Assembly: GCA_018816525.1 (NCBI GenBank) | Contig: JAHIVV010000070.1 | Coordinates: 16,208 to 80,207, forward strand | Direction: 5' to 3' | DNA from: Elusimicrobiota bacterium | GTDB lineage: Bacteria > Elusimicrobiota > Endomicrobiia > CG1-02-37-114 > XYA2-FULL-39-19 | Length of the DNA: 64,000 nt | In this document: positions 2,896 to 47,623 of the stretch, piece by piece | Layout: every line of letters begins with the position of its first letter | How positions within the stretch are numbered: position 1 is the stretch's first letter | The notes under the pieces: generated by a model | What the model saw: the letters and a program-made list of their open reading frames with translations, nothing else | Told to the model about the DNA's origin: nothing | The model's database searches: none | Translations under genes and position numbers: made by a program

Positions 2896-2968
2896 AACAC
2901 ACTCTCCCGTGTAGCGATCCCGTTTCCCCTTAAAGGAAAAAACGGGGCTATAAATTTTTATTACTTAA

Positions 2969-2997
2969 ATTCTACCCTTTTAAACTCTTAAAGTCAA
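2969..2997 (-). promoter_or_regulatory. Candidate sigma70 promoter for recA (TTGACT-N17-TAGAAT)
   Basis: Minus-strand read: TTGACT at 2997..2992, 17-nt spacer, TAGAAT at 2974..2969. A ~67-nt leader carries a CCCGTTT/AAACGGG hairpin and a GGGAGAG RBS before the ATG at 2895. Confidence 0.45.
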
Positions 2998-3002
2998 GAA
3001 AT

Positions 3003-25119: not shown

Positions 25120-25770
25120 TCATACTACTGGTAAAATTCTTTCAATCGTATTTGCAGGGCATCGTTCAACACACAAACCGCAATTGCTGCATTTATTATA
25201 GTTTACAACCGCCAGGTTATTTTCAATCTTTATGGCTTTTGTAGGACATATTTTAACACATATACCGCATGAAATGCAACCTGTCGCGCAAATTTCCCTT
25301 ACATACCTGCCGGCGTTCAGGGAAGAACATTTAATATGAACATCATATTTAGAAGGAACAAGTGAAATTATTTTTTTTGGGCAGGCGCTAACACAAAGGC
25401 CGCAACCGGTACAAGTGTTCTTGTTTACCGCGGGTATTTCGCCTTTAACGTGCGAAATTGCGCCTTCGGCACAGGCTTGTGCGCAATCGCCAAAACCTAT
25501 ACATCCGTAAATACATTCCTTCTTGCCCCTGAAAATTTTGCTGGCTGCAAAACAGGTTTCTACGCCCTGATAGGCATACTTGTCGGAACAGTTGTTTCCC
25601 CCTGCGCAATAAATAACAGCAGAAATATTTTCCGGATTCTGTTTGGGATCTTCGCAGGCCCCGTTCCCTGAATGCACAGACTCGAAACCCGGAAAACAAT
25701 GTATGCCCGTCAAAACTAATGCAACCGTAAAACCTAACGCACCAAGAATCAAAATCGGAGAATAATCCAT
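25120..25770 (-). CDS. rnfB: Rnf electron-transport complex subunit B (polyferredoxin)
   Basis: 216 aa. N-terminal membrane anchor, then multiple CxxCxxCxxxCP 4Fe-4S motifs. Last gene of an rnfCDGEAB-order operon. Confidence 0.8.
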   Translation of the reverse strand: MDYSPILILGALGFTVALVLTGIHCFPGFESVHSGNGACEDPKQNPENISAVIYCAGGNNCSDKYAYQGVETCFAASKIFRGKKECIYGCIGFGDCAQACAEGAISHVKGEIPAVNKNTCTGCGLCVSACPKKIISLVPSKYDVHIKCSSLNAGRYVREICATGCISCGICVKICPTKAIKIENNLAVVNYNKCSNCGLCVERCPANTIERILPVV

Positions 25771-25784
25771 AAATAATCGCCTGT

Positions 25785-26378
25785 TTACAACCCAAACAAA
25801 CCGCGCAGACCTAATATTGCAATTGACATAAGCCCGGCAAGAATAAATTCAATCGGGTAACCCTTCAATGCTTTTGGAATCGGCGCGGATCCAACCCGTT
25901 CTTTCATTCCGGCAAACAGTATTATAGCAAGAACATACCCAAAAGCAATACCCAAACTGTAAATAATGCTATTAACCAGGTCAAGCTTATATTCGGTATT
26001 TAACAACAAAACTGCCAGAATTATACAATTTGCCGTAATAACGGACAGGCTGTTTCCGGCTGTCGAAAAATAGTTTGCCAGAACTTTTTTTAATATAAAT
26101 TCCTGAATTTGAACCAATAAAACTATGATGAGTACGAATGATACCAATTTCAGGTATTCAAGTTTGTAAGGAATAAGCGCTAAGTTATAAAACAGCCAGG
26201 ATAAAATAGTGGCTGCCAGATTAACGCATACTATCGGCACGGCTGCGTTCAACGAACTTTTAAGGCTATTCGACATGCTAAAAAAAGAACATAAGCCTAT
26301 AGTCCTTATGAGGACTATGTTATTTACAACAAAAGCACTTAAAAAAATCAATACTGGGTTTGTGGTATTATTTATCAT
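25785..26378 (-). CDS. rnfA: Rnf complex subunit A
   Basis: 197 aa polytopic. RnfA/RnfE family motifs (IGLCSF…, ITANCIILAV). Confidence 0.88.
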   Translation of the reverse strand: MINNTTNPVLIFLSAFVVNNIVLIRTIGLCSFFSMSNSLKSSLNAAVPIVCVNLAATILSWLFYNLALIPYKLEYLKLVSFVLIIVLLVQIQEFILKKVLANYFSTAGNSLSVITANCIILAVLLLNTEYKLDLVNSIIYSLGIAFGYVLAIILFAGMKERVGSAPIPKALKGYPIEFILAGLMSIAILGLRGLFGL

Positions 26379-26979
26379 TTTTTTCTGAAAACCTAGAACG
26401 AAACCAGTTTAAGATACCAAGCAGGATTCCGATGAGAAGAAACCCTCCCGCAGGCAAAACCATAACATTCACGGGCTCCTGAAAAAGTTGTTGGCCCATA
26501 AAAGCCCCGCTTCCTAATATTTCCCGCAGGGATCCGATCAGCAAGATTACTATTGAGAATCCAATACTGAAACCGGCCGCATCCAGAAAAGAATGAGTTG
26601 TGGAATTTTTCACAGAATAAAATATTTCAGAACTGTTCAGCAGTAAACAATTTGCCATAATAAGCGGTATAAAAATACCCAAATATGCCGAAAGTTCAAT
26701 AAAATAGGCCTGGATAAAATAATCAACGAACGTCGTATAAAACGCTATTATTACCATAGATGCAGGTATTTTTATTTCATTGGGAACAAATTTTCTAATA
26801 AGCGAAATCGTTAACCCTGAACATATTAAAACAAAGGAAACAGCTGCGCCCAGGCCTATACTGTTATAAGCTGTAGTCGTAATTGCCAATACCGGGCACA
26901 GGCCTACCATCAGGACAACGACAGGATTAGCCCGCCATATTCTTGAAAGAAAAGCATTTAAATTACTGTTCTGTAGCAT
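26368..26979 (-). CDS. rnfE: Rnf complex subunit E
   Basis: 203 aa polytopic. LGLCPVLAITT motif. Confidence 0.88.
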   Translation of the reverse strand: MLQNSNLNAFLSRIWRANPVVVLMVGLCPVLAITTTAYNSIGLGAAVSFVLICSGLTISLIRKFVPNEIKIPASMVIIAFYTTFVDYFIQAYFIELSAYLGIFIPLIMANCLLLNSSEIFYSVKNSTTHSFLDAAGFSIGFSIVILLIGSLREILGSGAFMGQQLFQEPVNVMVLPAGGFLLIGILLGILNWFRSRFSEKNDK

Positions 26980-27517
26980 TGATTGATTCTACTTCCTCCA
27001 CTGCTTTTTTAAGCGCTTTTATATACGCCTTTGAAGAAACGTCTGCACCCGGAATTATGCTGATATCTTTTCCGTTTTTTTCAAGCTTCAGGTCATGAAA
27101 TTTTAAGCCTATAAATTTCTTGAAAAAATCACTTTTTGAAGAATCATCTTCAAGGTTAATTCTAAAATCTGCGTTCAATATTTTTATTCCCAATATTCTA
27201 TTTTCCTGGTCCACTCCGAATAAAATTTCAATATCGCCGTTGTAGTCGCGCACATTTAACTTTACGATTTTCCCTCTTTGTACATGCTGTTTGTCGAACC
27301 CTGCAATAAATTCTCTGTTACCGGCTGTTTTATTTTCAAACCAAGCTGAATTAGGAAGAACCTGTCTGTATAACAAAATTAAAGTTTCAGTTTTTCTCTG
27401 TTTTATTACCGGTTCAATTGCAAGATATAGCTGTGATATTAGTAACGCTGAAATCATGCAAAGAAAAGCCAGTTTTAAGGATGAGGCAGCTGTTTTAATA
27501 AGTATTTTTGAATTCAT
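26963..27517 (-). CDS. rnfG: Rnf complex subunit G (FMN-binding)
   Basis: 184 aa. N-terminal TM, then an FMN_bind domain with the covalent-FMN site region (PGADVSSKA). Confidence 0.8.
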   Translation of the reverse strand: MNSKILIKTAASSLKLAFLCMISALLISQLYLAIEPVIKQRKTETLILLYRQVLPNSAWFENKTAGNREFIAGFDKQHVQRGKIVKLNVRDYNGDIEILFGVDQENRILGIKILNADFRINLEDDSSKSDFFKKFIGLKFHDLKLEKNGKDISIIPGADVSSKAYIKALKKAVEEVESINATEQ

Positions 27518-28370
27518 CAGACCCCAAACCTTTTTTTCTGGTGACTTTATCGATAACAGGCGTAAACATATTCATTATTAAAATCGAATAATATATTCCT
27601 TCCGGAAAAGCGCCTTTCAATCTTATTAACATTGTCAGCAGTCCGCAGCCGATACCAAAAATAATCTTTCCGTTTCCTGAAACAGGCGTTGTTACCGGGT
27701 CCGTTGCCATAAAAACAGCGCCTAATAACAGTCCTCCGGTTAAAACCTGAAAAAGCGGATTATTTCTTGTAACTATTGATAAAAGAACAACTGTCACAAC
27801 CAAGCTCAAGGGCGCATGTAAGGTAATTTGTCTGCGAAAAATTAAATACAATGCACCGGCTATAATTGCAATTTTTGAAACTTCACCCAGGGCTCCCGGC
27901 ATATTCCCCAAGAACATATTAAATTTAGTTATCTCTAAAGAAGCCGGAATACCGGCAATTTCTTTTGACCAGGAAAGCTGGACAAAAGCCCTTGCAATTA
28001 ACGCAGGGTTAAATGGATTGTGGCCAATACCGCCAAAAAATTGTTTACCTATCAATATTGCAAAAACTGCCCCGCAAGCGACTATCCACAAAGGAGCTGA
28101 CGCTGGCAGAGTAAGGGAAAAAATAATTCCTGTCACTACAGCAGAAAGGTCATTAATAGTGTTTTTTCTTTTAGCTATTTTTTCAAATACAATTTCAGTC
28201 AAGCAGCAAAATAACACGCTGGTTGAAACAATCAACAAAGAATCCTTTCCAAAAAAAATAACGCCCGCTATAACTGAAGGCAACAATGCAAAGAGTACGT
28301 CCAGCATCACATGCCTGATTGTTTTTTCAGATCTAATATGTGGCGAAACAGAAACAAATAACGGGTTCAT
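27495..28370 (-). CDS. rnfD: Rnf complex subunit D
   Basis: 291 aa. NqrB/RnfD family (…DPVTTPVSGNGKI…). Confidence 0.9.
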   Translation of the reverse strand: MNPLFVSVSPHIRSEKTIRHVMLDVLFALLPSVIAGVIFFGKDSLLIVSTSVLFCCLTEIVFEKIAKRKNTINDLSAVVTGIIFSLTLPASAPLWIVACGAVFAILIGKQFFGGIGHNPFNPALIARAFVQLSWSKEIAGIPASLEITKFNMFLGNMPGALGEVSKIAIIAGALYLIFRRQITLHAPLSLVVTVVLLSIVTRNNPLFQVLTGGLLLGAVFMATDPVTTPVSGNGKIIFGIGCGLLTMLIRLKGAFPEGIYYSILIMNMFTPVIDKVTRKKGLGSDEFKNTY

Positions 28371-29695
28371 TGTTTTCCCAGGACTTTCCCTTTAGCCAGT
28401 TTTATCTGCTGGACCATGGGCCTTTTTGCTACACAAACATAAGAACAGCAGCCGCATTCTATACATTCTTCAGGGAATAATTTTCCGCACTCTCCCCAAA
28501 GAGAATTCTCCGAGTAAACGCTCAGAAAGTTAGGCATTAATTTCATGGGACAAACGTCAATACACCTGCCGCATCTTATGCACGGATCAAATTCATATTG
28601 TATGTTTTTTTCTTCCTGTTGAATTACTATTATCCCGGAAGTGTTCTTGACAATTGGAATATCAGCCGTAAATTGAGCGGTCCCTTTCATAGCCCCGCCG
28701 ATAATCAGTTTCACCGGCCGCTGCAAGGCAGCGGACGAAGCAACGTAGCCGCTTTGGGAGAGCAAATCCGAAACAAGCGCACCGATTCTGACGTTATAAT
28801 TTCCGGGAAATTTAATATCGTTCCCGGCCACGGTTACGATTCTTGAAATCAGAGGCATATTTTTTACTACGGCCTGCTCGATAGCGTAACTTGTGCCTAC
28901 GTTCCAGACAACTGCGCCGGTGTCTAAAGAAGTTACATTTGAAGGCGCTTCACGGTTAAGGACTGCTTTTATAAGTTGTTTTTGGGCCCCTTGCGGGTAT
29001 TTTGATTTTAAGATTTTTATAGTTATATTCGGCACGGTAAAAACTTCTTTTCTGAGGGCCTTTATCGCTTCTGTTTTATTTTCTTCAACTGCAATAAACC
29101 CTTTGTGGACGTCCAGGATGTACATCAATATTTTTAAACCTTCAACAATTTCCCCGGCATTTTCACGCATAAGCCTGTCGTCACAGGTTATATAGGATTC
29201 AGATTCGCAGCCGTTGAGTATGCAAGTATCAATTTCTTTTGACAAGGCAAGCTTCAGGTTTGAAAGATAACCCTCTCCGCCCATGCCTACAATTCCGGAT
29301 TCCTGGATAATTTTAATAAGCTCGTCGTGCGAATAACGGAAATAATCCCAGTGAGTTTTTTTTGTTTCAATTTTGTTATCCTTATTGTCCGATTCTATAA
29401 TAATGGATAATACAGGCTCATTTATGAATGGATGGTTGTAGGGGCCGATGTCCCTGACAATGCCGGAAATGCTTGAGTGTATGGTAGAAGAAATGTTTCC
29501 ACGTACTTCCCCGATTTTTTGCCCGGTTAGTACATAATCGCCGTTTTTTACTATAGCAAGCGCGGTTTCTCCAAAATGCTGATTTAAAGGAATTACAACT
29601 TTCTTTGGAAGGGCTGTTGCTTTTACTCTTATATCTTCGGTTGTTTTTTTAAATAAAGGTGGAAAAATTCCTCCCTTAAAGGTAAGATTTGGCAT
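28367..29695 (-). CDS. rnfC: Rnf complex subunit C (NADH-binding, 2x[4Fe-4S])
   Basis: 442 aa. GMGGEGY nucleotide-binding region, then CIRCGRCIDVCP and CIECGCCSYVC. Confidence 0.9.
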   Translation of the reverse strand: MPNLTFKGGIFPPLFKKTTEDIRVKATALPKKVVIPLNQHFGETALAIVKNGDYVLTGQKIGEVRGNISSTIHSSISGIVRDIGPYNHPFINEPVLSIIIESDNKDNKIETKKTHWDYFRYSHDELIKIIQESGIVGMGGEGYLSNLKLALSKEIDTCILNGCESESYITCDDRLMRENAGEIVEGLKILMYILDVHKGFIAVEENKTEAIKALRKEVFTVPNITIKILKSKYPQGAQKQLIKAVLNREAPSNVTSLDTGAVVWNVGTSYAIEQAVVKNMPLISRIVTVAGNDIKFPGNYNVRIGALVSDLLSQSGYVASSAALQRPVKLIIGGAMKGTAQFTADIPIVKNTSGIIVIQQEEKNIQYEFDPCIRCGRCIDVCPMKLMPNFLSVYSENSLWGECGKLFPEECIECGCCSYVCVAKRPMVQQIKLAKGKVLGKQ

Positions 29696-29858: not shown

Positions 29859-30971
29859 TTATTTTATTAATCTTTTTTCAAGGACAGAACGGATTATTTG
29901 GTTTGGGATGCCGGTTTTGACGGTCACTTTTCCTATATCAACCGGCAGGACAAACTTGTTTTGGCCTTTCCGGAATTTCTTGTCATATTTCATTATTTCC
30001 ATTAAGGAACTTACGGTACAACCCTTTATTTTGACAGGAAGGCCGGCTTTTGCAATTAATCTTTCTATTTGCAAACATTTACTTTCAGCCAGCAATCCAA
30101 GCTTGAAAGAAATTTCCGCTTCGCACACCATTCCAATTGCGACAGCTTCGCCATGGCTCGTTTTGAAATTCCCCGCCCCTTCGATCGCATGCCCTACAGT
30201 ATGGCCATAATTAAGTATTATCCGTATATTTTTTGTTTCTTTTTCGTCCAACTGGACTATATCCCTTTTTATTTTGGTTGATTTTCCTATAATATACCCC
30301 AGGGCTTCCGGCCCGTAATCAAGTATTTGCGCAATGTTCTTATCAATAAAATGGAATAGTTCCGCTTCTTTAATAACACCGTACTTTATAATTTCAGCCA
30401 AACCGTTTAGTAATTCCTTTTTCGGCAATGTTTTGAGAAATGAAATATCTGTCAGTACTAGACTGGGTTGATAGAAAGAACCTACTATATTTTTTATTAT
30501 TTTCCCTTTCCTTCTAAAATCAATACCGGTCTTTCCGCCAATGCTTGAATCTACAGCAGAAAGCAAAGTGGTAGGCATTTGAACGAAAGGCACGCCTCTG
30601 CGGTATGAAGAAGCAACAAATCCCGCCATATCCCCCACTACTCCTCCGCCTAACGCTAAAACAGTCATCTTTTTCTTTTTGCCGTTATCAAAATCAAGAA
30701 CTTTTCCCAATAATTGTTCGTAATTAAGCCAGGATTTGTTATTTTCACCGTCCGGAAAAATCCCAAAACCAATATCGTTAATACCGGAACGCTTCAGCTC
30801 TGAATTGACGGCTTTGCCGTATAAACCGAATATTTTCGGGCTGCTTATTATGAAAACACTTTCTGCAATATTGAGTTTTTTGATATCAGCGGCAAGAGTG
30901 TGTGCTAGATTTGATCCAATAACTATTTTATAGCTGGAGGAATTTGTTTTTAAAACAATGGTTTTTGACAT
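29859..30971 (-). CDS. aroB: 3-dehydroquinate synthase
   Basis: GGGVVGDMAGFVA, the conserved DHQS metal and NAD sites. Start set at ATG 30971 (MSKTIVL). The ORF-track start is TTG. Confidence 0.9.
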   Translation of the reverse strand: MSKTIVLKTNSSSYKIVIGSNLAHTLAADIKKLNIAESVFIISSPKIFGLYGKAVNSELKRSGINDIGFGIFPDGENNKSWLNYEQLLGKVLDFDNGKKKKMTVLALGGGVVGDMAGFVASSYRRGVPFVQMPTTLLSAVDSSIGGKTGIDFRRKGKIIKNIVGSFYQPSLVLTDISFLKTLPKKELLNGLAEIIKYGVIKEAELFHFIDKNIAQILDYGPEALGYIIGKSTKIKRDIVQLDEKETKNIRIILNYGHTVGHAIEGAGNFKTSHGEAVAIGMVCEAEISFKLGLLAESKCLQIERLIAKAGLPVKIKGCTVSSLMEIMKYDKKFRKGQNKFVLPVDIGKVTVKTGIPNQIIRSVLEKRLIK

Positions 30972-31053
30972 TGGTCCCTGCAATAAAAAAATAAACCCAC
31001 AAAATCAAAAGGATAGCGGCTGTTTATTTAAACCTATAAATCAGGTATTGAAC

Positions 31054-31236
31054 CTATATTAAATCTTCTGAACCGAGGGTTTTCTTTTTGCCGTCTGCTT
31101 TTACTTTCTCTGTTGAAGCCTTGATCATCTCTTCAACTTTTTTTGAAAGCACATCAAGATAGCTCGGGCTTGTGCGCAATCCGCTTTCTTTTACCAGCTT
31201 TTTTACTTTACTTGCTACAACAAGAATCTCTGCCAT
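31054..31236 (-). CDS. Small histone-fold protein (DUF1931 / bacterial HBb-like singlet histone candidate)
   Basis: 60 aa from the internal ATG (MAEILVVASKVKKLVKESGLRTSPSYLDVLSKKVEEMIKASTEKVKADGKKKTLGSEDLI), preceded by GGTGGAG. Helix-loop-helix-loop-helix layout with RKT-like 'KKKTLGSEDL' as in the archaeal HMfB RKTIKAEDI. Basic. Confidence 0.5.
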   Translation of the reverse strand: MAEILVVASKVKKLVKESGLRTSPSYLDVLSKKVEEMIKASTEKVKADGKKKTLGSEDLI

Positions 31237-31503
31237 GTTTCTCCACCAGCCTTTTTTTAGTTTCACCTACATAGGTTTAATTGTATCTAGTGGCTTTTTT
31301 TAGCAAAAAAGAAATAATTTTGCAAATCGCTTATTTTAATATTCCCGGTATCTATAAAATGGCTTACGGAATATGAGTATACCCAATCGTCATTCAGTGG
31401 AAATTTTTTTTCTTTTGCAGCTGGAAAGCAATAAGAATGAACAAATAAGCTGTGAAAATTACTAACAATTTTTTACGCATAATGTTTCAGGTATTTCATG
31501 CGA

Positions 31504-32364
31504 TTATTTTACAATATCTAGTGAAAAATCTACGGCCGGAGATGAGTGAGTGATTTCACCTACAGAAATCCTATCTGCTCCCAGCTTTGCAATTCTGGCC
31601 ACATTCTTAAGGTTCACCCTGCCGGAAACCTCTATTTCAATATTTTTTTTCGATTTCTTTATGAACTTTATTGCTTTCTTCAGAGTTTTAATGTCCATAT
31701 TATCAAGCATTATAATATTAACATTATTTGCGGCCGCTAATTCCACATCGCGCATATTATCCGCTTCAAATTCGATTTTCATGCCGTAAGGCAATTTACT
31801 CTTCAGGGAAGAAATAAGCTGGTAGGAAGGTATCCTGCCGTAGCGGTAAATACTGATATAATTATCTTTTACCAGGGCCATGTCGTAAAGGCCCATACGG
31901 TGATTTACGCCGCCGCCGCAAATTACAGCATATTTTTCAAGCACTCTTAAATTGGGCGTTGTCTTCCTTGTGTCATAAATTTCCGCGGTTGTTTTTTTTA
32001 TTTTTCTGGCATATTTATTTGTATGTGTGGCTATGCCGCTCAGGTGCGCTAAAAAATTAAGAGCAGTCCTTTCGCCGGAAAGAATGGCTCTTGCCAAACC
32101 TGAAACAACGGCGAGAGTCCTGCCTTTTTTTATAGTGTCCCCGTCGCTGAATTTTGCCCTCCAGACACATTTCTTATCGAGAAGTTTAAAAACCTGCCTG
32201 GCTACAGCCAGCCCCGAAACTACTGCCTGGTCCTTGGCAATAATTTTTGCCGAAATTCTTAAGGTAGGTGAAATAAGGTTCAAGGCCGTAATGTCGCCGG
32301 TACCTATATCTTCAGCCAGCGCGCTTTTAATCAAAGGATTACACTTTTTTAAGTCCAGTTTCAT
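31504..32364 (-). CDS. nadC: Nicotinate-nucleotide pyrophosphorylase (quinolinate PRTase)
   Basis: 286 aa. QAPRTase N- and C-terminal domains (…MLDNM…EVSG…). Confidence 0.9.
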   Translation of the reverse strand: MKLDLKKCNPLIKSALAEDIGTGDITALNLISPTLRISAKIIAKDQAVVSGLAVARQVFKLLDKKCVWRAKFSDGDTIKKGRTLAVVSGLARAILSGERTALNFLAHLSGIATHTNKYARKIKKTTAEIYDTRKTTPNLRVLEKYAVICGGGVNHRMGLYDMALVKDNYISIYRYGRIPSYQLISSLKSKLPYGMKIEFEADNMRDVELAAANNVNIIMLDNMDIKTLKKAIKFIKKSKKNIEIEVSGRVNLKNVARIAKLGADRISVGEITHSSPAVDFSLDIVK

Positions 32365-35157: not shown

Positions 35158-35181
35158 GATGCAAGCATTAATGCTTGCATC
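35158..35181. repeat. Perfect 24-nt palindrome GATGCAAGCATTAATGCTTGCATC
   Basis: Read directly; 12+12 perfect inverted repeat. It abuts the stop codon of the ATP-cone kinase gene and lies 28 nt upstream of the surE ATG. No flanking T-run on either strand. Confidence 0.9.
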
Positions 35182-36559
35182 AATACTTGTAGGTGCTGCC
35201 GCCAATAAATTCACGCAAAAGCGATCTTCTTGGTATTACAGAATCGTCTTTAAGCTCTTCAATCTGCATTAATAACTCATAAACACGTTTTGCCCGGATA
35301 AATGCGTCCACTTTTTTCGGGTCGGATTCGTATTCCCTGATTATTGAAGGAAAGTATTTAAAAAGATACTTTTTGTAAACAGGAAGCTCATAAGCAAGAG
35401 CGCTATTGAAAACGTGGTCAACTTTTCCTATGAAAGGCACAATATATTTCATTTCGCTTCTGCGCACATAATGCCAGTGGCCTACAGTTTTACCGGGGTC
35501 ATAACCCCTGTGCCAGGAATCACGGACCATCCGGCGCAACATGCGCAAATCAGCCCAGCGCACAAATTCCCCGGAGTCATCTTTCAACTGGCACATAGCC
35601 TCTATATAAAGTTTAAATTTCAGTTCCTTTGGAATATTTGAAGACAATTCGTCGTATAAACCGTGAAGGCTGTCAATTAAAAGAATTTGACCCGGTTTAA
35701 GGCTGAACTCTACTGCATTTAGTGTCCGTAGACCTGTTTTAAAATCATATTTAGGCGATTTTATTGTTTTTCCTTCCAGCAATTGGTCAAGATGCCTGTT
35801 AACCAACAGCAAATCCAGGGCATGCGGAGTCTCAAAGTCATAATCGCCATATTCATCTTTTGGATGTTCATCCAGATTTTTGAAATAGTTATCCAGATTC
35901 ATCAACGAAAAAGTTACACCTTCTTTTTGAAGTATCTCGCCTATTTTTATGGTAGTGGTTGTTTTCCCCGAACTGGAAGGTCCTGCAACAATAGCAATCC
36001 TGATTCTATTCTTATTTTTGATTATTTTTTTTGCTACTGAATTTATTTCGTCCTGGTAGGTTTTTTCAGAATCCCTGATTAAAGTCCTGAAATTCGCGCT
36101 TTTAACCCTCTTGTTAAGTTTTTTTACTGTATCGCAGTTATGGTCAACATTCCAGCTGAAAACCTTTAAGAGATTTTTATAAGGGACATTATCCTCAATT
36201 ATTATTGAAGATTCCTTTTTTTCGCGAAGTTCACTATGTTTATGCCTGTAAAGAATATATGCTTTTGCCGTTCTGAAATGGCCGCCTTCTACAAGCACTT
36301 TTTCGGTAAGGTCTGAGATTTCTTCAACGCTTGGCGTAGAAGCCTGCGGGTATAATTCACTCATCATTTTTATTACTTCGTCAGCCAGTTCACTAGCCTG
36401 TTCTTTATCGCCTCCGCCGACAGCAAGCGCAGCTTTCAAAATCGAGTTTAGTATCCTTTCACGGTTAAAGGACACTATAGACCCGTTTCTTTTAATTATC
36501 TTTTTTATTTTGTAACTCTCTATTTTTGTTTCAGGAAAGAGGAATTGCTGCTTTGGCAT
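35180..36559 (-). CDS. ATP-cone domain fused to a P-loop uridine-kinase/phosphoribulokinase-family nucleoside kinase
   Basis: N-terminal ATP-cone (IKRNGSIVSFNRERILNSILKAA…). Central Walker A (IAIVAGPSSSGKTTT), Walker B-like LLIDSLH, and a C-terminal extension. Start set at ATG 36559 (MPKQQ…). The ORF-track start is TTG. Confidence 0.7.
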   Translation of the reverse strand: MPKQQFLFPETKIESYKIKKIIKRNGSIVSFNRERILNSILKAALAVGGGDKEQASELADEVIKMMSELYPQASTPSVEEISDLTEKVLVEGGHFRTAKAYILYRHKHSELREKKESSIIIEDNVPYKNLLKVFSWNVDHNCDTVKKLNKRVKSANFRTLIRDSEKTYQDEINSVAKKIIKNKNRIRIAIVAGPSSSGKTTTTIKIGEILQKEGVTFSLMNLDNYFKNLDEHPKDEYGDYDFETPHALDLLLVNRHLDQLLEGKTIKSPKYDFKTGLRTLNAVEFSLKPGQILLIDSLHGLYDELSSNIPKELKFKLYIEAMCQLKDDSGEFVRWADLRMLRRMVRDSWHRGYDPGKTVGHWHYVRRSEMKYIVPFIGKVDHVFNSALAYELPVYKKYLFKYFPSIIREYESDPKKVDAFIRAKRVYELLMQIEELKDDSVIPRRSLLREFIGGSTYKY

Positions 36560-36651
36560 CGTGCGGAAATTATACAATAATTAGGAGAAAGATTCCAGCA
36601 AAAAGCAGGAAAAGGTATTGATAACGTAAGCATAATTTTGTGGAAGCGTTC

Positions 36652-37752
36652 CTATTTTATCAGGTTGACGATTGTATCAACCATGACTATTTCGGGGTTC
36701 AGGGATTTGAAAGCGGTAATGTTATCGAATGCTTTTTTATAAGAAAGAAGCTTGCCGGGATTTTCTACAAATTCCGACAAAAGCATGGAAAGTTTTTGCG
36801 GGCTTAAAGATTTTTCTTCTATTACCACGGCTGCATGATTGTTCCCAAGATAATCAGCATTAAACTTCTGGTGGTTTTCTGTTGCATAAGGAAATGGTAT
36901 AAGTATGGCCGGCTTCTTTAAAGCTATAAGTTCCGCTACAGTTGTTGCCCCTGCGCGGCAGACAACCAAGTCAGAGAATGCATAAGCACTTCCGATATTA
37001 TGAAGATAAGTCATTACTTTTGCATCAAACCCTTTTTCCTTGTATGAATTTTCTACCCGGATAATATCCTTTTCGCCGGCCAGATGCATAAACTGCAGTT
37101 TTGATTTATATTTTTCAAGCGCTCCCAGAGCATCAACCATCAACTGATTTATTGCATGAGCCCCCAGGCTGCCTCCAAAAATAAGTATTTTAAATTTGCC
37201 GGCATCAGCATTGAAGCTTTCGGGAGTATTAGTATTTAAACCTTCAAGAATTTCTTTCCTGACTATATTTCCGGTAAAAACAGTTTTACTTTCGTCAAAA
37301 TACTTTATTGATTCAGGGAAGCTGATCATTATTTTCGCTGCCATTTTCGACAGTACTTTGTTTGCAATTCCGGGGAGATAATTTTGTTCATGTATTACGG
37401 TAGGAATTCCGGCTATTTTTGCCGAAAATAACACCGGAAAAGATAAATAATTGCCCAAACCAAGCACCAGGGCTGGTTTTGTTTTCTTTAGAAGCAGGAA
37501 AGAAGTTAATATTGAAACAAAAAGTTTGAAGAGAAAAAACACAAATTTAAACGAAAATTTCCTGGGCATCCCCGAAACATTCAACCTGTAATAATTAAAG
37601 TTTTCTTTTTCTATGATATTTACGCATTTATCTCTTTGGCCTATGACAAAGCTGATTGAAAAACCTCTTTTTTGCAATATTTTTGCAAGAGCTATAGCCG
37701 GGTAGATATGCCCGCCAGTCCCGCCAGCTACGATTAATATGTTCTTGTTCAT
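36652..37752 (-). CDS. murG: UDP-GlcNAc--MurNAc-pentapeptide-undecaprenol GlcNAc transferase
   Basis: 366 aa. GGTGGHIYPAIA and the GT28 N/C domains. Confidence 0.95.
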   Translation of the reverse strand: MNKNILIVAGGTGGHIYPAIALAKILQKRGFSISFVIGQRDKCVNIIEKENFNYYRLNVSGMPRKFSFKFVFFLFKLFVSILTSFLLLKKTKPALVLGLGNYLSFPVLFSAKIAGIPTVIHEQNYLPGIANKVLSKMAAKIMISFPESIKYFDESKTVFTGNIVRKEILEGLNTNTPESFNADAGKFKILIFGGSLGAHAINQLMVDALGALEKYKSKLQFMHLAGEKDIIRVENSYKEKGFDAKVMTYLHNIGSAYAFSDLVVCRAGATTVAELIALKKPAILIPFPYATENHQKFNADYLGNNHAAVVIEEKSLSPQKLSMLLSEFVENPGKLLSYKKAFDNITAFKSLNPEIVMVDTIVNLIK

Positions 37753-38858
37753 CTAAACACCGTGAGTTTCCCTCTGTTGCGCGAGATATTTGCTAAAATG
37801 CCCACTGCGCTCATTGTAAGAATCAATGAAGTGCCGCCATAGGAAAAAAACGGCAATGCGATACCTTTTGTAGGCAGCAATCCTGAACAGACTGCCATAT
37901 TAAAAAAAGCCTGTAAAACAATCAATAATGTAATCCCGGAGGCCAACAACATCCCGAATAAATCCTTGGCCTTTTGAGCAATCTTTATTCCTCTATACAA
38001 AAAATACGCAAATAACCCTACTATAACAATGGTACCTAATATCCCCAGCTCTTCGCCGATAACTGAAAAAATAAAGTCTGTATGCGCTTCCGGCAGATAA
38101 AATTTTTTCAACTCGCTGCCGCCAAGGCCTTTACCGAAAATCCCGCCTGATCCCAAAGACATTAGTGACTGGCATAATTGGTAAGCTGATGATTGCGCAT
38201 GTTTCCATGGGTCCATAAAAGCAAAAAAACGCGCTACCCTGTAAGGTTTACTTAAAATTTCAAAATATAACACTGGTACAGCCAATAAAAACAATGCCAG
38301 CAGGTGCATAATTCTTGCGCCGCCGATAAAAAGCACTATCATAGTCACAGTAATGATGATAAAAGGAATCCCGATATCCGGTTCCAGGGCTATCAGGAAA
38401 GAGGCAACGCAAGCTACGATTATAGGAGGCAAAAAACCTTTAACGAAATCCTTTAATTTGCTTTTATTTTTGTCTATGAAATCAGCCACGAATAGTATTA
38501 CGGCAAATTTTGCAAATTCTGAAGGCTGGAAATCAATCAGACCCAGATGAATCCATCTCCTGGCCCCTTTAACCGATTTTCCTATTATTAACACGGCAAT
38601 CAAAAGAATTATTGAGGTAATTATTGCGGCAGTGGATACTTTCTGCAAATACCTGTAATTCAGTGAAGCAAAAAAAAGAAAAAAAACCAGGCTTATCAGC
38701 GTCCACAGAATTTGTTTTTTCAGGAAAAAAAACTGGTCAGCTCTTTTTTCTCCTGTCATGATAGCGCTTGAGGAATATATCATAACAATGCCGAAACATA
38801 CCAGCAGAAACACAACAAATAAAAGTTTATAATCAGCTTCCTGCAATTTTGCGAACAT
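37749..38858 (-). CDS. ftsW: Peptidoglycan glycosyltransferase FtsW (SEDS family)
   Basis: 369 aa, 10-TM SEDS protein (SEFAKFAVIL…). Confidence 0.9.
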   Translation of the reverse strand: MFAKLQEADYKLLFVVFLLVCFGIVMIYSSSAIMTGEKRADQFFFLKKQILWTLISLVFFLFFASLNYRYLQKVSTAAIITSIILLIAVLIIGKSVKGARRWIHLGLIDFQPSEFAKFAVILFVADFIDKNKSKLKDFVKGFLPPIIVACVASFLIALEPDIGIPFIIITVTMIVLFIGGARIMHLLALFLLAVPVLYFEILSKPYRVARFFAFMDPWKHAQSSAYQLCQSLMSLGSGGIFGKGLGGSELKKFYLPEAHTDFIFSVIGEELGILGTIVIVGLFAYFLYRGIKIAQKAKDLFGMLLASGITLLIVLQAFFNMAVCSGLLPTKGIALPFFSYGGTSLILTMSAVGILANISRNRGKLTVFR

Positions 38859-38861
38859 AGT

Positions 38862-40214
38862 TTAGTTTAAAGAATTTACCAGTTTTTTGAATTCCGAACC
38901 GCGTTGTTCAAAGTTATCGAACTGGTCAAATGAACTGCACCCTGGCGATAACAAAACCACATCCCCAGGTTTAGCAGTTTCCGACGCAATTTTTACTGCA
39001 TTTTTTAATGTTTTGACTTCTATAATCTCCGAGGTTTCCGTAAGGTCTTTTTCAATTATTTCTGCCGCTTCTCCAATCAATAACAGTTTTTTTACTTTGT
39101 CTTTGACAAGGTTTTTTAGGGGCGTGTAAGAAGCGCCCTTATGCCTGCCCCCCATAATAAGAATAACATTTCCGCTGAAAGACTCTAATGCAACAAAAGT
39201 GGAATCGACATTTGTCGATTTTGAGTCATTAATGTATTTTATTCCGTTTATTTTTCTTACCAATTCAAGCCTATGTTCAACACCCTGGAAGCTTTCCAAT
39301 GTCTTTTTGATTAACTCCGGTTCTATCCCGGCCAAAATACCAGCTGAAAGCGTAAAAAGCGCATTTTCAATATTATGCCTGCCCGGGATGATTAAATTCA
39401 AAGAAAAATGATAGTTACTGGGTTTTAAAAACGGCAGGCTGATAAAAACTTCTTTTGATACGCTGTCATAGCTAATACCCGCTTTAAGCCTTTGCTTCTG
39501 GCTTACAAACACAACGGTAGAATGGTATTTTCCTGACATTTTCCTGCAATTTTCGTCATCATAATTCAGAATACAATAATCCTCTTTCGTCTGGTTCCGG
39601 AATATATTTTCTTTAACGTTTATATAATTCTCCATCGTTTTATGGTGTTCCAGATGGTCCGGGGTAATATTTAATATGCAGGCAATACCCGGTTTGAATT
39701 TTTCCGTATCCTCAAGCTGATAACTCGATACTTCTACAACTACTACAGTGTCTGAATTTATATCATCGACGAAACTGATCAAAGGCATGCCTATATTGCC
39801 GGCTACAACTGTTTTAAAACCGGAAGACTTGAATACTTCCCCTACCATCATGGTTGTGGTTGTTTTTCCGTTTGTTCCAGTGATTGCTACAAGCAGTTTC
39901 GGTTTAATAAGGCTGGCAGCCAGCTCTATTTCGCTTAAAATCCTGATGTTTTTCTGTTTGGCCCGTAAAAGAATTGGCAGATCTGAAGGGATTCCCGGGC
40001 TTTTGATAATCAGCCCTGAGTTGAATATTTTTTCTGTATGCCCGCCAATTTCATATTTTATTTTTTCATTTAGGAGACTTAAATTCCCTGCAGCTTTATC
40101 TTTGTCCGCTGATTCCGAAACAAATACTTCAACTTTTTTTGAGTATAGGAAATTTGCTGTTGCTATTCCTGTTTTTCCTAACCCCAAAATAGATGCTTTC
40201 TTGTATGGAAACAT
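38862..40214 (-). CDS. murD: UDP-N-acetylmuramoylalanine--D-glutamate ligase
   Basis: 450 aa. Mur ligase domains (GTNGKTTTT). Confidence 0.93.
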   Translation of the reverse strand: MFPYKKASILGLGKTGIATANFLYSKKVEVFVSESADKDKAAGNLSLLNEKIKYEIGGHTEKIFNSGLIIKSPGIPSDLPILLRAKQKNIRILSEIELAASLIKPKLLVAITGTNGKTTTTMMVGEVFKSSGFKTVVAGNIGMPLISFVDDINSDTVVVVEVSSYQLEDTEKFKPGIACILNITPDHLEHHKTMENYINVKENIFRNQTKEDYCILNYDDENCRKMSGKYHSTVVFVSQKQRLKAGISYDSVSKEVFISLPFLKPSNYHFSLNLIIPGRHNIENALFTLSAGILAGIEPELIKKTLESFQGVEHRLELVRKINGIKYINDSKSTNVDSTFVALESFSGNVILIMGGRHKGASYTPLKNLVKDKVKKLLLIGEAAEIIEKDLTETSEIIEVKTLKNAVKIASETAKPGDVVLLSPGCSSFDQFDNFEQRGSEFKKLVNSLN

Positions 40215-40216
40215 AA

Positions 40217-41302
40217 CTATCTCAATTTAAGAGAGCTCATTGCGATTAACATCAGTATGATGCCTGCAATCCAGAACCTTACGGTAACTTTTGTCTCGAC
40301 CCATCCGGAAAGCTCAAAATGGTGATGCAATGGGGCCATTTTAAATATTCTCTTCTTGTATCTCTTGTAACTAAAAACCTGCAAAACCACGGATATTATT
40401 TCCGCAAAAAAGACACCGCAGACAACAATAAATATTAATTCCTGCTTTATAAAAACTGCTACCAATCCTATAGCCCCTCCTAAAAACAAGGAACCTGTAT
40501 CTCCCATAAAAACTTCAGCCGGATAGCCGTTGAACCAGAGGAATCCAAGCCCTGAACCAATCATTGCGCAAAGAAATACCGTCAATTCACCTGCTCCGCT
40601 CACAGGAATTATTCTTAGATATTGTGACATCTTTGCATTGCCGGCTATATAAGCGAATATTGCGTAAGCTATCCCTGCGATTATAATATTTCCGATAGCC
40701 AGTCCATCCAGGCCGTCTGTAAGGTTTACAGCGTTAGATGCGCCTACAATAACAACCATAGCGAACAGTAAATAGAAAATTCTAAGATCTATAAAAACTT
40801 CCTTAAGGTAAGGAATGTTGATGCTTGTCGCATATTGGTAATTAGCAGGATAAAAGTACAGGTAAATACACACAGCGGCCGCAAAAGTAAACTGTCCTGC
40901 AAGTTTCCATCGGGCTATTAATCCTTTGCTGTCTTTTCTAACTATTTTTGTATAATCGTCCATGTAACCCAGCAAACCAAACCAGACCATTCCCGCAATA
41001 ATCCAGAGAATAAACCTGTTATCAAGCTTAGCCCAAAGAATAGTGGATACTACCAGTGAAATAAGGATTATCAATCCCCCCATTGTAGGAGTGCCATTTT
41101 TTTTCAAGTGTGTCTGAGGTCCGTCAGTCCTTATCGACTGTAAAAATTGCTTGTTTTTCAGGTAATTGATGATTTTTGGCCCAAAAATAAAACTTATTAA
41201 CAGCGAGGTTATTATCGCAGATATTGAACGAAAGGTTATGTATTCCAAAACATTTAAGGGCGAAAAATATATTTTTAACGGATATAACAAATGATATAGC
41301 AT
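40217..41302 (-). CDS. mraY: Phospho-N-acetylmuramoyl-pentapeptide transferase
   Basis: 361 aa polytopic. DD/DG motifs (NAVNLTDGLDGLA). Confidence 0.97.
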   Translation of the reverse strand: MLYHLLYPLKIYFSPLNVLEYITFRSISAIITSLLISFIFGPKIINYLKNKQFLQSIRTDGPQTHLKKNGTPTMGGLIILISLVVSTILWAKLDNRFILWIIAGMVWFGLLGYMDDYTKIVRKDSKGLIARWKLAGQFTFAAAVCIYLYFYPANYQYATSINIPYLKEVFIDLRIFYLLFAMVVIVGASNAVNLTDGLDGLAIGNIIIAGIAYAIFAYIAGNAKMSQYLRIIPVSGAGELTVFLCAMIGSGLGFLWFNGYPAEVFMGDTGSLFLGGAIGLVAVFIKQELIFIVVCGVFFAEIISVVLQVFSYKRYKKRIFKMAPLHHHFELSGWVETKVTVRFWIAGIILMLIAMSSLKLR

Positions 41303-42678
41303 TACGGCCTCAAAATTTTACCAATGGTTTTTTCCAGCCCCATTCCGCGCGAGGCCTTGAATAAAACTACGGTATTTTTATTTAATTTTCGTTTCAAAAC
41401 AGATAGCAGTCCTTCCTGGTCGTTAAAATGCCGGACATTTTTTAATTTGCTGTTTTCTTTTACCTGCTTCATCATGTTCCCATAAAGGTATATATTTTCT
41501 AAAGGGAGCCCTGCTAAAAAATCTCCAAGGAGTTTGTGTTCATTTTCTGCATATTTACCTAACTCAAGCATGTCCCCTATCACGACAATCTTTTTCTTAC
41601 CCGGATAGCCTTCAACAAAATAAGAAATAGCCTGGCGCATTGAATCAGGATTTGCGTTATAAGCGTCATTTATTAATAAAGAACCTGAAGGAGATTCTAT
41701 TTTTTCCATACGCATGTCGATTCCAGTGAATTCTTCAAGCCCTCTTTTTATGATATTATTGTCTACACCCAACGAAAAACACGCTGCAGCAGCGGCCAGC
41801 GCATTCATAACATTAAACCTTCCGGGTAAAGAAAGATTGATGTCAATTATTTCTTTGTTTAGCTTCAATTTGAAAAACGTACGGCCTTCGCCGATCTGAA
41901 TATCATAAGCGCTGACATTTGCACTGTCAATCAATCCATAAGTGACCATTTTGCATTTTAAACTCGATTTTAAACCCACTAAAAGAGGGTCATCAATATT
42001 AATAACGGCAACACCTTTCACAGGCAATGAGGCAAAAAGTTTGCTTTTTTCATGAAAAACCTGTTCAGGGCTGCCCAAATACTCCAAATGTGTTTTTCCA
42101 ATGTTCGTTATTATACCAACATCTGCACAAGCTATATCAGCAAGCCTATCCATTTCACCCGGAACCGAAACACCAAGCTCAAGAATACAATATTTGTGTT
42201 CTTGCTTAAGATTAAACAGCGTTAGAGGAACACCTATAAGGTTATTGTAATTTTTAAAACTCGCCAGGGTCGGGGCTTTATTTTTTAGAATTGAATAAAT
42301 TATTTCTTTTGTAGTGGTTTTACCGCTTGAACCTGTTATTGCAATAGTCACAGGCGCAATTTTTTTCTTATAATAACTGGCAAAATCACCCAGCGCTTTT
42401 AAAGTATCCTTTACGATAACAACAGAGGGAATTTTTGGAAAATATTTGCTTATTTCTTCACTCATCCTGGCCAGAACCAGGCCGGACGAGCCTTTTTCTA
42501 TTGCTTTTCCAATAAAAGTATGAGCATCAAAGTTTTTGCCTTTTAAAGCAAAAAAAATGTCTCCCGAATGGACATGTCTTGTGTCGGTTGATACATTTAA
42601 TATATTAGAATCAGGATCGCCGAAAATGAACTTTCCTCCAGTAGCATTGATCAGCTCCTTTAATGTAATTTTTTCCAT
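41302..42678 (-). CDS. murF: UDP-MurNAc-tripeptide--D-alanyl-D-alanine ligase
   Basis: 458 aa. Mur ligase (GSSGKTTTKE). Confidence 0.93.
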   Translation of the reverse strand: MEKITLKELINATGGKFIFGDPDSNILNVSTDTRHVHSGDIFFALKGKNFDAHTFIGKAIEKGSSGLVLARMSEEISKYFPKIPSVVIVKDTLKALGDFASYYKKKIAPVTIAITGSSGKTTTKEIIYSILKNKAPTLASFKNYNNLIGVPLTLFNLKQEHKYCILELGVSVPGEMDRLADIACADVGIITNIGKTHLEYLGSPEQVFHEKSKLFASLPVKGVAVINIDDPLLVGLKSSLKCKMVTYGLIDSANVSAYDIQIGEGRTFFKLKLNKEIIDINLSLPGRFNVMNALAAAAACFSLGVDNNIIKRGLEEFTGIDMRMEKIESPSGSLLINDAYNANPDSMRQAISYFVEGYPGKKKIVVIGDMLELGKYAENEHKLLGDFLAGLPLENIYLYGNMMKQVKENSKLKNVRHFNDQEGLLSVLKRKLNKNTVVLFKASRGMGLEKTIGKILRP

Positions 42679-44159
42679 TTTTTTAGACCATTCAGTAATT
42701 CATTTTCAACAACTTCTCTGTCACTAAAATGAATTTTTTGCTGGCCAATTATCTGATAATTCTCATGGCCTTTCCCCGCAAGTAAAACAATGTCGTTTTT
42801 TTTCGCAATTTGCAGAGCTCTTTTAATTGCTTCTTTTCTATCGAGTTGTATTTCGTAATTTTCTTTACCGGCTCTTCTTATGCCGACTTCAATGTCGAAA
42901 ACAATTTTTTCCGGATTTTCTGAACGGGGATTGTCACTTGTAACTATTGCGTAATCGCTGAGTGTAACTGCCGTTTCTCCCATGATGGGGCGCTTTGACC
43001 TGTCTCTGTCGCCTCCGCAGCCAAAAAGGGTAATTATTTTCCCTGTTACAATTTCTTTTAAAGTTGTTAAAACATTTTTCAGCGCGTCATCAGTGTGTGC
43101 GTAATCTACGACAATTGTGAACGGCTGCCCGCAATCAACTTTTTCAAGCCTGCCCGGAACTGATTTAAGATTTTCTATGCCCTTCACTATTGATTCAGGC
43201 ATTATGCCAAAATTCAGCGCGCAGGCACAGGCCGCCAGAATATTATAAATATTATGCTTGCCGATTAATTCTGACTTTATTCTAAGCTTCAAATCCCCGC
43301 TGTGCAAATCGAAGGATGTTCCGGAGGCCTCGTACCTTATTTCAGCAGGATAAACATCAGATTTTTGTGAAAGACCGCAGGTTATAGCTTTGCATTTTAT
43401 TAATCCCGGGATTTTTTCGCCCCAGGTATCGTCGTTGTTGATTATAGCAAATTTTATCCGGTCTTTTTCACCCTCTTTTTCCAGAAGTTTAAAAAGCTTC
43501 AGTTTTGCGGCAAAATATTCTTCGAAAGTTTTATGAAAATCCAGGTGGTCCCTGGTTAGATTAGTAAAAATTGCGGCATCAAACTCAACAAAATCAACGC
43601 GATTAAGGCTGAGGGCATGGGAAGATACTTCCATCAGTACAGTTTTTATTTGTTTCTTTACTGCTTTATCAAGTAAAAATTGCAGGTCAGAAGACAGGGG
43701 AGTTGTGGTATCAGGTGAAATTATTTCTTTTCCAAACCTATAATTAATAGTGCCGATTACTGATGCGGGCATACCGGCAGTTTCAAAAATCGATTCAAGC
43801 AGGTAAGTTATGGTTGTTTTCCCGTTTGTTCCCGTGACACCGATTACATTCAGTTTTTTCGAAGGAAAATCATAATATTTTGCAGATAAAAAAGAAAGTG
43901 CTTTAAGAGCATTCGGAACAACGATTTGAACGGTATCTTTGATATCGTCTAATTCTCTGTCAGTTACTATTGCCGCAGCGCCATTTGTAACAGCTTCGCT
44001 GACAAACCTGGCACCATCTGTATGCTGGCCCTGCAGGCAGACAAAAATATATCCCGAACAGACTTTTTTTGAATGGTATGTTATACCGGTGATATCAATA
44101 TCGGCCCTGCCTGTTAATTTATAGGCTGAACCTTCAATAAGTGAGCTTAGTAAGGTCAT
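42660..44159 (-). CDS. murE: UDP-MurNAc-L-Ala-D-Glu--2,6-diaminopimelate ligase
   Basis: 499 aa. Mur ligase (GTNGKTT) and a DNPR-type motif (SDNPRSENP). Confidence 0.93.
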   Translation of the reverse strand: MTLLSSLIEGSAYKLTGRADIDITGITYHSKKVCSGYIFVCLQGQHTDGARFVSEAVTNGAAAIVTDRELDDIKDTVQIVVPNALKALSFLSAKYYDFPSKKLNVIGVTGTNGKTTITYLLESIFETAGMPASVIGTINYRFGKEIISPDTTTPLSSDLQFLLDKAVKKQIKTVLMEVSSHALSLNRVDFVEFDAAIFTNLTRDHLDFHKTFEEYFAAKLKLFKLLEKEGEKDRIKFAIINNDDTWGEKIPGLIKCKAITCGLSQKSDVYPAEIRYEASGTSFDLHSGDLKLRIKSELIGKHNIYNILAACACALNFGIMPESIVKGIENLKSVPGRLEKVDCGQPFTIVVDYAHTDDALKNVLTTLKEIVTGKIITLFGCGGDRDRSKRPIMGETAVTLSDYAIVTSDNPRSENPEKIVFDIEVGIRRAGKENYEIQLDRKEAIKRALQIAKKNDIVLLAGKGHENYQIIGQQKIHFSDREVVENELLNGLKKWKKLH

Positions 44160-45846: not shown

Positions 45847-46120
45847 TGGCGCCCGTTGAATCCAAGTAAATAGTATTTTCTTTTTTCGGCGTAGCGAATT
45901 TCATTTTTTTTGCTATATCGTCGAGTCTTTCAAGCGATTCCATTTTGTAGTACAATATTTGCAAATCTGAAAGGGTTTCCTTTTCCTTTATTTTTTCTTC
46001 GTTGAGTTTATTGATTTTGTACTGCATTCTTACAGATTCTATTTGTTCCCACGCATAGATAATAGCCACAAAAAAAATCAGCGCTGTCAGCCCAAAATAG
46101 TTATAAGGCCCTTTTTTCAT
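45830..46120 (-). CDS. ftsL: Cell-division protein FtsL-like (single TM + coiled coil)
   Basis: 96 aa. TM helix then a coiled coil. Located between rsmH and ftsI in the dcw cluster. Confidence 0.6.
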   Translation of the reverse strand: MKKGPYNYFGLTALIFFVAIIYAWEQIESVRMQYKINKLNEEKIKEKETLSDLQILYYKMESLERLDDIAKKMKFATPKKENTIYLDSTGANENHK

Positions 46121-46139
46121 AGTAGGTTCCAGGGTGCGG

Positions 46140-46170
46140 CCTGTTTATCGAAGGTGATTCGATAAACAGG
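46140..46170. other. 11-bp perfect stem hairpin CCTGTTTATCG-aaggtgatt-CGATAAACAGG between rsmH and ftsL
   Basis: Read directly. No T-run after it on the minus (transcribed) strand. A T-rich run follows on the plus strand only. Confidence 0.8.
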
Positions 46171-46183
46171 TTTTCTGCATTTT

Positions 46184-47071: not shown

Positions 47072-47075
47072 AGGA

Positions 47076-47501
47076 TTATATTTCCAATTCAGGAGCCAAC
47101 TTATTAAATATACCCTGGGCTTTGCTATAATATTTATTCCAGGATTCCTGCGACCAGATTTCAACCCTGTCGCGCACTCCTACGACAATAACTTTATTAT
47201 TTATTTTTGCCTGTTTTTTTAAATCCTGAGGGATAAGAATTCTCCCCATTTTATCCGCCTGCAGGTCTATTGCGACCGAAAAAAAAGCGCGTTTAAAAGC
47301 GCGCTCATGAGCTTTGTTTTTCAATGAAAGGTTTTCAAACTTATTTATTAATTTATTCCAGGATTGTTCAGGATAAAGATAGAGGCAGCCGTCAAGGCCT
47401 ATAGTCACATAAAAATTTTTAATTCCCTGGCGGAATTTTGCGGGAATGAATAAGCGGTTTTTGTTGTCTATCGCGTGTTTGTATTGTCCGGTAAAAGCCA
47501 T
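47076..47501 (-). CDS. mraZ: Transcriptional regulator MraZ
   Basis: 141 aa. Duplicated DXXXR-containing UPF0040 halves (MAFTGQYKHAIDNKNRLFIPAKFRQ … KMGRILIPQDLKK). GGGGAG RBS. Confidence 0.93.
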   Translation of the reverse strand: MAFTGQYKHAIDNKNRLFIPAKFRQGIKNFYVTIGLDGCLYLYPEQSWNKLINKFENLSLKNKAHERAFKRAFFSVAIDLQADKMGRILIPQDLKKQAKINNKVIVVGVRDRVEIWSQESWNKYYSKAQGIFNKLAPELEI

Positions 47502-47571: not shown

Positions 47572-47623
47572 GGGGAATTTTTGAGTTTTGATTTTAATAA
47601 TTTTTTGGCGGGCAAAAATAATA

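Follow-up and report, generated by a model that had tools for sequence, protein, structure and literature searches.

Identity and predicted fold of the protein

The window, i.e., the whole 64-kb stretch of DNA that was analysed, carries on its minus strand a 60-aa coding sequence (31054-31236) that very probably encodes a bacterial singlet histone of the α3-truncated "bacterial dimer" class, related at ortholog level to HBb (Bd0055) of Bdellovibrio bacteriovorus. The assignment draws on the translation, homology to HBb, an AlphaFold2 model, Foldseek matches, and purifying selection in 81 orthologs. The identification of an HBb-type histone in Elusimicrobiota is correct and already known, the phylum being named in three papers (see "Published records and significance"). 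A bacterial singlet histone had been proposed in the first-pass annotation, and this was borne out, with HBb as the type, by homology, predicted fold, DNA-contact residues, and presence in related genomes. Translation of the minus strand reproduced the protein quoted there exactly, followed by a stop; the strand had been left unstated, and the plus-strand reading of 31054-31236 contains many stops.

A phmmer search of the PDB with the query alone returned HBb/Bd0055 (8FVX, 8CMP) at an E-value of 8e-12 over residues 1-58. A profile built from 87 family members matched HBb at an E-value of 1.8e-17, the archaeal face-to-face (FtF) histone HTkC (9F2C) at 9e-11, HLp of Leptospira perolatii (9QT0) at 2e-9, HmvA at 0.0045, and HMfA/HMfB at 0.26-0.58, and alignment to HBb with hhalign gave a probability of 98.8 and 54% identity. 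The "bacterial dimer" category was defined by sequence clustering around HBb (Schwab et al. 2024, PMC11390915), and phmmer, the family profile, and hhalign all placed the window protein with HBb.

The single histone fold that had been claimed from the sequence was also what the AlphaFold2 monomer model, computed from the alignment of the 87 family members, predicted (mean pLDDT 86), namely helix-loop-helix-loop-helix with α1 at residues 2-17, L1 at 18-23, α2 at 24-48, L2 at 49-55, and α3 at 56-59, the chain ending at residue 60. In a Foldseek search of the PDB with this model, the top seven matches were HBb, HLp, and HTkC (TM 0.72-0.77), HBb itself being matched at TM 0.75-0.77 with 48-51% identity, and were followed by the histone folds of H4, H2B, MHF/CENP-S-X, and NF-Y. 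The predicted α3 is a single turn, as in the α3-truncated class (3-4 residues), and α2 comprises 25 residues, about 4 fewer than in HMfB (a 4-residue gap in the hhalign alignment; 4-5 fewer is the mark of the class). The protein is basic, as stated in the first-pass annotation, with a net charge of +4 and a pI of 9.5.

Family assignment

A Pfam scan of the query at E ≤ 10 returned no match, neither to PF09123 (DUF1931) nor to PF00808 (CBFD_NFYB_HMF), and an NCBIfam scan gave only a spurious 14-bit match to FolD. Among the 87 family members, 21 had weak PF00808 matches (best 1.4e-5 and 25.7 bits in P0088; gathering score 21.4 bits), and one matched PF09123 at 4.5e-4 and 20.9 bits, below the gathering score of 21.8 bits. 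Residues 1-58 of HBb fell just short of the PF00808 cut-off (21.2 against 21.4 bits) and scored 15.4 bits with DUF1931. The nearest Pfam family is PF00808, with the window protein below detection.

Membership in DUF1931 was rejected on these matches, the query being unmatched at E ≤ 10 and a single family member of 87 matching below threshold. The "DUF1931-like" label, and with it the placement of HBb in that family, had to be dropped, as the query lacks a PF09123 match and the literature sets DUF1931 apart: hits to it were removed in defining the bacterial singlets (Hocher et al. 2023, PMC10627809), and it was treated as a separate category without the usual DNA-binding residues (Schwab et al. 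2024, PMC11390915). Within the PDB, only HLp, the tetrameric histone of Leptospira, carries the label "DUF1931." The lack of any DUF1931 or histone-fold hit, which had been named as counter-evidence, is a false signal on a plain Pfam scan because only searches against solved structures and with family profiles reveal the homology.

Another class reported in Elusimicrobiota, the IHF histones, is marked by a structured, dimerising C-terminal tail and by an IHF-like gene in the same operon (PMC11390915). This type was rejected for the window protein, which has no C-terminal tail in the AlphaFold2 model and whose gene neighbours aroB and nadC, with no IHF-like neighbour.

Gene start and flanking signals

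The histone coding sequence starts with ATG at 31236-31234 and stops with TAA at 31056-31054 (minus strand). A mechanical list of open reading frames runs the frame upstream to a GTG at 31266, giving 70 aa, and the NCBI annotation gives the gene with the same over-long GTG start as a 70-aa "hypothetical protein" (P0001, Elusimicrobiota MAG). This longer version was ruled out by the starts of the orthologs and by an internal Shine-Dalgarno sequence. The 60-aa ATG start is correct because GGTGGAG stands 4 nt 5' of the ATG (31241-31247, read 31247-31241, minus strand, within the 70-aa GTG frame), an ATG at the homologous Met is the start in 80/81 orthologs (lengths 59 or 60 aa), and 70/81 carry a Shine-Dalgarno motif (GGAG, GAGG, or AGGA, no more than 20 nt from that start). 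The same GGTGGAG agrees with the earlier claim that the gene has its own ribosome-binding site. The annotated start should be shifted from GTG 31266 to ATG 31236, and the "hypothetical protein" can now be named an HBb-type histone-fold nucleoid protein.

Between the stop codon of nadC and the start of the histone gene lie 267 nt of AT-rich intergenic sequence (31237-31503, minus strand), presumably the promoter region. The promoter-like sequence reported for this gene was recovered in part: sigma-70-like matches do exist, the best on the minus strand scoring 9/12 (TTTCCA-16-TATACT, 31403-31376) and a further weak one being found by eye (TTGCTA-15-TACAAT, 31306-31280), but they are weak, and their number in the region (5 vs 2.9 ± 1.5 expected from shuffling) lies within shuffle expectation. 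On the other side, a 70-nt spacer from the histone stop to the aroB start (30984-31053, minus strand) contains an AT-rich hairpin and, behind it, a run of U (AAAUAAAC...GUUUAUUUUUUU). Nothing 3' of the histone gene qualified as a convincing intrinsic terminator, the hairpin having an MFE of -16.8 kcal/mol and a z of -0.70 against shuffled sequences, and a search for terminator-like sites on the minus strand at the gene returned none. Read-through from the histone gene into aroB is possible.

Conservation and selection

A scan with one genome per species yielded 168 loci, so that the presence of the ORF in related genomes, which had been put forward as a check on the gene, was confirmed. The best 80 of the 168 loci were kept and formed, together with the window copy, the 81-sequence ortholog set; 78 of the 80 carry Elusimicrobia, Elusimicrobiota, or Endomicrobia in their titles, and the other two (L044, L052) are titled only "bacterium." A word-indexed protein search at E ≤ 1e-3 gave 88 homolog clusters, and all those with a name belong to Elusimicrobiota or Endomicrobia.

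Mean pairwise identity across the 81 orthologs was 0.77, 0.85, and 0.44 at codon positions 1, 2, and 3, respectively, and 0.70 at the protein level, while GC3 of the histone genes spanned 0.15-0.97 and GC of the ortholog loci 26%-70%. The low identity at third positions, with a protein about 70% identical across so wide a range of GC3, is the mark of purifying selection on the protein. The histone ORF is a real, strongly conserved gene.

A library of representative proteins, which carries no taxonomy, contained 1024 homologs at E ≤ 1e-3 and 102 at E ≤ 1e-10. Many close relatives in this library (P0090, P0093, P0095, P0097) are doublets that carry two HBb-like folds in tandem in one chain of 118-150 aa and have the appearance of naturally occurring pseudo-dimers of the HBb type; some doublet relatives have Cys-rich tails or signal-like N-termini, and P0094 (279 aa) has a long N-terminal extension.

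Positions of the HBb DNA contacts and dimer core

In crystals and molecular dynamics (MD) simulations, the main contacts of HBb to the DNA backbone at minor grooves are made by N22, R57, S9, T53, T8, S24, K10, K12, K52, and K16, with N22 having the most DNA contacts in MD; the clamp of HBb is R51-D58, and its dimer core comprises V11, L31, I35, L38, and I59 (PMC11317129). Across the Elusimicrobiota orthologs, S9, K10, K12, K16, R21, T53, E57, and D58 were invariant (81/81), K52 was present in 80/81, and K13 in 69/81. The S9-K10 motif and the α1 lysines of the HBb type are found in the window protein, as is the L2 "KT" motif with the clamp Asp, K52/T53/D58 being in register with K52/T53/D58 of HBb and K53/T54/D59 of HMfB. 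The clamp Arg (R51 in HBb) was not found, position 51 being Lys in 78/81 orthologs and Arg in 3, and from the residues at these positions a Lys51-Asp58 salt bridge in place of the Arg-Asp clamp is plausible. Core positions were conserved in kind in the 81 orthologs (V/I11, L30, V/I34, L/I/V59), and position 37 was more variable (I/T/L/M/A).

Residues of larger assemblies were also compared. The tetramer residues of HLp are R49, S52, N53, and R55 (PMC12701072) and align to V45, D48, G49 (or K50), and K51 of the window protein, in an alignment that is slightly ambiguous near a one-residue insertion. The residues that mark FtF histones (R48/N52 in the sequence logo; R49/N53 in HLp) are absent, with Asn49 in 7/81 orthologs. 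A full-length α3 of the hypernucleosome type (about 10 residues) is also absent, the chain ending two residues past D58.

Proposed mode of action and alternatives

The most likely reading of the protein is a homodimer that would bind DNA non-specifically and bend it as a nucleoid protein. An antiparallel homodimer with non-specific DNA bending is to be expected because the contact residues and the core are kept and the protein is basic. By analogy with HBb biochemistry and structures, two chains would pair antiparallel via α2, with V11, L30, V34, M37, and L59 as the probable dimer core, corresponding to V11, L31, I35, L38, and I59 of HBb. The dimer would touch the phosphate backbone at minor grooves with the first turn of α1 (S9, K10, K12, K16), and the paired L1/L2 loops would also contact DNA, R21-T22-S23 coming from one chain and K52-T53 from the other, while Lys51-Asp58 may take over the L2-stabilising role of the Arg-Asp clamp. 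Binding would be sequence-independent, the DNA would be bent or compacted, and the protein would be an abundant nucleoid-associated protein. Assembly is predicted to stop at the dimer, with no nucleosome-like or hypernucleosome assemblies, because the chain ends two residues past Asp58 and holds no FtF tetramer residues.

The binding mode of HBb itself is disputed, with an end-on filament (PMC10627809) set against a bending dimer (PMC11317129), and the window protein, at 48-51% identity to Bd0055, could in principle share the former, i.e., dimers binding end-on to give a straight, protein-coated "nucleohistone" filament in which DNA is not bent. This mode was proposed from the first Bd0055 co-crystal and accompanied by unconventional, non-wrapping binding in vitro (Hocher et al. 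2023, PMC10627809), but subsequent crystals of HBb with DNA, together with solution data and MD, speak for bending by the dimer (PMC11317129). One HBb contact, R57, is a Glu in the window protein. The sequence itself does not separate the two modes, and the filament is considered unlikely. Considerably less probable is an FtF-type histone whose tetramers wrap DNA, as in Leptospira HLp or archaeal HTkC. The family profile does match HTkC (9e-11) and HLp (2e-9), the structures are alike (TM 0.72-0.74), and L1 with LRTSP is nearer to MRVSP of HTkC than to MNTSA of HBb; HBb is nevertheless matched far better (1.8e-17), R49/S52/N53/R55 of HLp are not kept (Asn49 occurring only in the 7/81 orthologs noted above), and no confident oligomer above the dimer was obtained for the bacterial dimer class (Schwab et al. 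2024, PMC11390915). An FtF tetramer is held to be improbable because the HLp tetramer residues fall on V45, D48, G49, and K51.

Prokaryotic proteins with a histone fold do not necessarily all organise the genome (Schwab et al. 2024, PMC11390915), and the window protein might have the fold and leave DNA organisation aside, serving as an adaptor between proteins or regulating the flanking aroB or nadC locally; its gene does lie 70 nt from the downstream aroB, and no clear terminator separates the two. Against this, the conserved residues are exactly those with which HBb contacts DNA, the protein is basic, and the aroB/nadC context is kept only in the three closest genomes, which makes such a role the least credible of those open to a genuine histone-fold protein. 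That the ORF is a small intergenic one arisen by chance, as its mere 60 codons, the missing Pfam match, and the annotation as "hypothetical protein" might suggest, is refuted by 88 homolog clusters, 168 loci, a conserved start and Shine-Dalgarno sequence, coding-type substitutions, and a crystallised homolog.

Genomic context

The position of the histone gene between aroB (3-dehydroquinate synthase, 29859-30983) and nadC (quinolinate phosphoribosyltransferase, 31504-32364) was confirmed as first described, and further out in the window lie uvrB, surE, and the Rnf complex. Among the best 80 of the 168 loci, the nadC...histone-aroB arrangement was common only to the three closest genomes (L001-L003). 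In the closest relative with genomic context (L001, Elusimicrobia RIFOXYB2_FULL_48_7, 1737-3967), nadC and the histone gene are separated by two extra genes absent from the window, one for a polytopic membrane protein of 530 aa and the other an ORF of 213 aa broken by a masked N run; the indel between these close genomes measures about 2.2 kb.

A Methyltransf_28 (PF02636) gene, with nuoB and nuoC behind it, lies about 200 nt downstream of the histone gene in 47-65 of the 80 loci (e.g., L076), and in 38 of the 80 a divergent LuxR-type response regulator stands upstream of the histone gene (e.g., L013). The methyltransferase gene encodes 333 aa; a methyltransferase adjoining a histone gene is worth noting. 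PF02636 is the MidA/NDUFAF7 protein-arginine methyltransferase family, known for its role in complex I assembly, and because of this role the Methyltransf_28/nuo neighbourhood was read as lineage synteny. A conserved operon partner was considered and rejected, aroB/nadC being found only in L001-L003 and LuxR/Methyltransf_28/nuo in most others, which was taken as lineage synteny and not as a functional link. As the neighbours differ among loci, no conserved functional partner is apparent, and the histone gene is a stand-alone gene with lineage-dependent neighbours.

Within the 64-kb window, which is only a part of the genome, no second histone was found (best paralog in tblastn at an E-value of 0.97) and no HU gene (best tblastn E-value 2.7 with an E. 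coli HupA sequence as the query). The window has a GC content of 39.7%, and every credible ORF of at least 120 aa lies on the minus strand, an extreme strand bias. It also holds the Rnf genes (about 25120-29695), a dcw/mur cluster with mraZ and mraW (36652-47501), and a fusion of an ATP-cone with a uridine-kinase-like domain (35180-36577). A 199-aa ORF at 48885-49484 (minus strand) has a SpoVG domain at residues 117-188 only, which points either to a true start further downstream or to an N-terminal extension of about 115 aa; the ORF adjoins tRNA-Met and tRNA-Val and is near the RNase P RNA (47621-47927). SpoVG proteins are described as site-specific DNA-binding proteins in other bacteria (PMC3688583). 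The large protein of 2299 aa encoded at 53343-60242 (minus strand) is built of CarboxypepD_reg and prealbumin-like repeats, with a CHU_C sorting domain (type IX secretion) at its C-terminus; it is probably secreted or exposed on the cell surface.

Published records and significance

It was only in 2023-2025 that histones of bacteria came to be accepted as genuine chromatin proteins. A close ortholog of the window protein is already catalogued as OGS20241.1 of Elusimicrobia bacterium RIFOXYA2_FULL_40_6 in Supplementary Table 1 of Hocher et al. 2023 (PMC10627809), which also lists the orthologs recovered here as L001/P0004 and L002/P0014. The two proteins are identical at 57 of 60 positions (95%; differences D28E, E36D, and A47T) and belong to the same clade and to different MAGs, the name of the catalogued genome indicating about 40% GC (39.7% in the window). 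Schwab et al. 2024 (PMC11390915) include Elusimicrobiota in their list of phyla that have "bacterial dimer" histones, and the DNA-contact residues of HBb have been stated to be conserved in the phylum (Hu et al. 2024, PMC11317129).

With the clade and a 95%-identical ortholog already catalogued in the literature, the window histone opens no new question, and its practical gains are small. Each further phylum with fixed histones does bear on whether histones date from LUCA or were transferred, and on how bacteria combine histones with HU/IHF.

Comparison with known histones

The closest known system is HBb of Bdellovibrio bacteriovorus (PDB 8FVX, 8CMP, 9EZZ, 9F0E). Both proteins have about 60 aa and a nearly identical N-terminus (MAEiLVVaSKVKKL), and they have in common S9-K10, K12, K13, K16, an L2 of the form ADG...KT...D, a short α2, and a one-turn α3. 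They differ at a few positions fixed or nearly fixed in Elusimicrobiota. The DNA-contacting R57 of HBb is replaced by an invariant Glu57, where HMfB has E58; N22 of HBb by an invariant Arg21, which aligns with the "sprocket" R19 of HMfB and with R22 of HTkC; and the clamp Arg51 by Lys51. In addition, L1 of the Elusimicrobiota proteins is one residue shorter, and L2 has one extra residue, usually Lys, before KKT. The sprocket arginine has been described as not conserved in bacterial histones (Hocher et al., PMC10627809). These clade-specific differences are visible in the published alignment, and no discussion of them was found in the literature.

Judged from the residues themselves, the Elusimicrobiota-specific positions may tune DNA binding. 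It is also suggested, tentatively and with considerable doubt, that the Elusimicrobiota clade could be a mechanistically distinct sub-type of singlet histones between the archaeal/FtF α3 histones and HBb, on account of the invariant Arg21, the archaeal-like Glu57, the Lys in place of the clamp Arg, and the L2 insertion. If so, the L1-L2 grip on DNA could be nearer to the archaeal one, and the bending angle or the affinity could be unlike that of HBb. R21, K51, and E57 offer concrete mutational targets for an Elusimicrobiota histone.

DUF1931 (PF09123) belongs to the same histone-fold superfamily as the window protein, and its model spans 138 positions. The archaeal HMfA/HMfB (1B67, 1A7W) resemble the window protein at the L2/α3 junction and in Arg21 and Glu57, which correspond to R19 and E58. 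The likeness of KKKTLGSEDL to the junction of HMfB, pointed out in the first-pass annotation, was recovered by hhalign, which paired KKTLGSEDLI with RKTIKAEDIE of HMfB. In the window protein α2 is 4 residues shorter, whereas α3 of HMfB continues 10 residues further; with α3 cut to one turn, the four-helix-bundle tetramer interface of HMfA/HMfB is absent. HLp (9QT0) and HTkC (9F2C) share the α3-truncated fold (TM 0.72-0.74), and HTkC also has the Arg-x-Ser-Pro of L1, but the Arg/Asn tetramerisation residues of both are absent in the window protein, and their profile scores are weaker than that of HBb.
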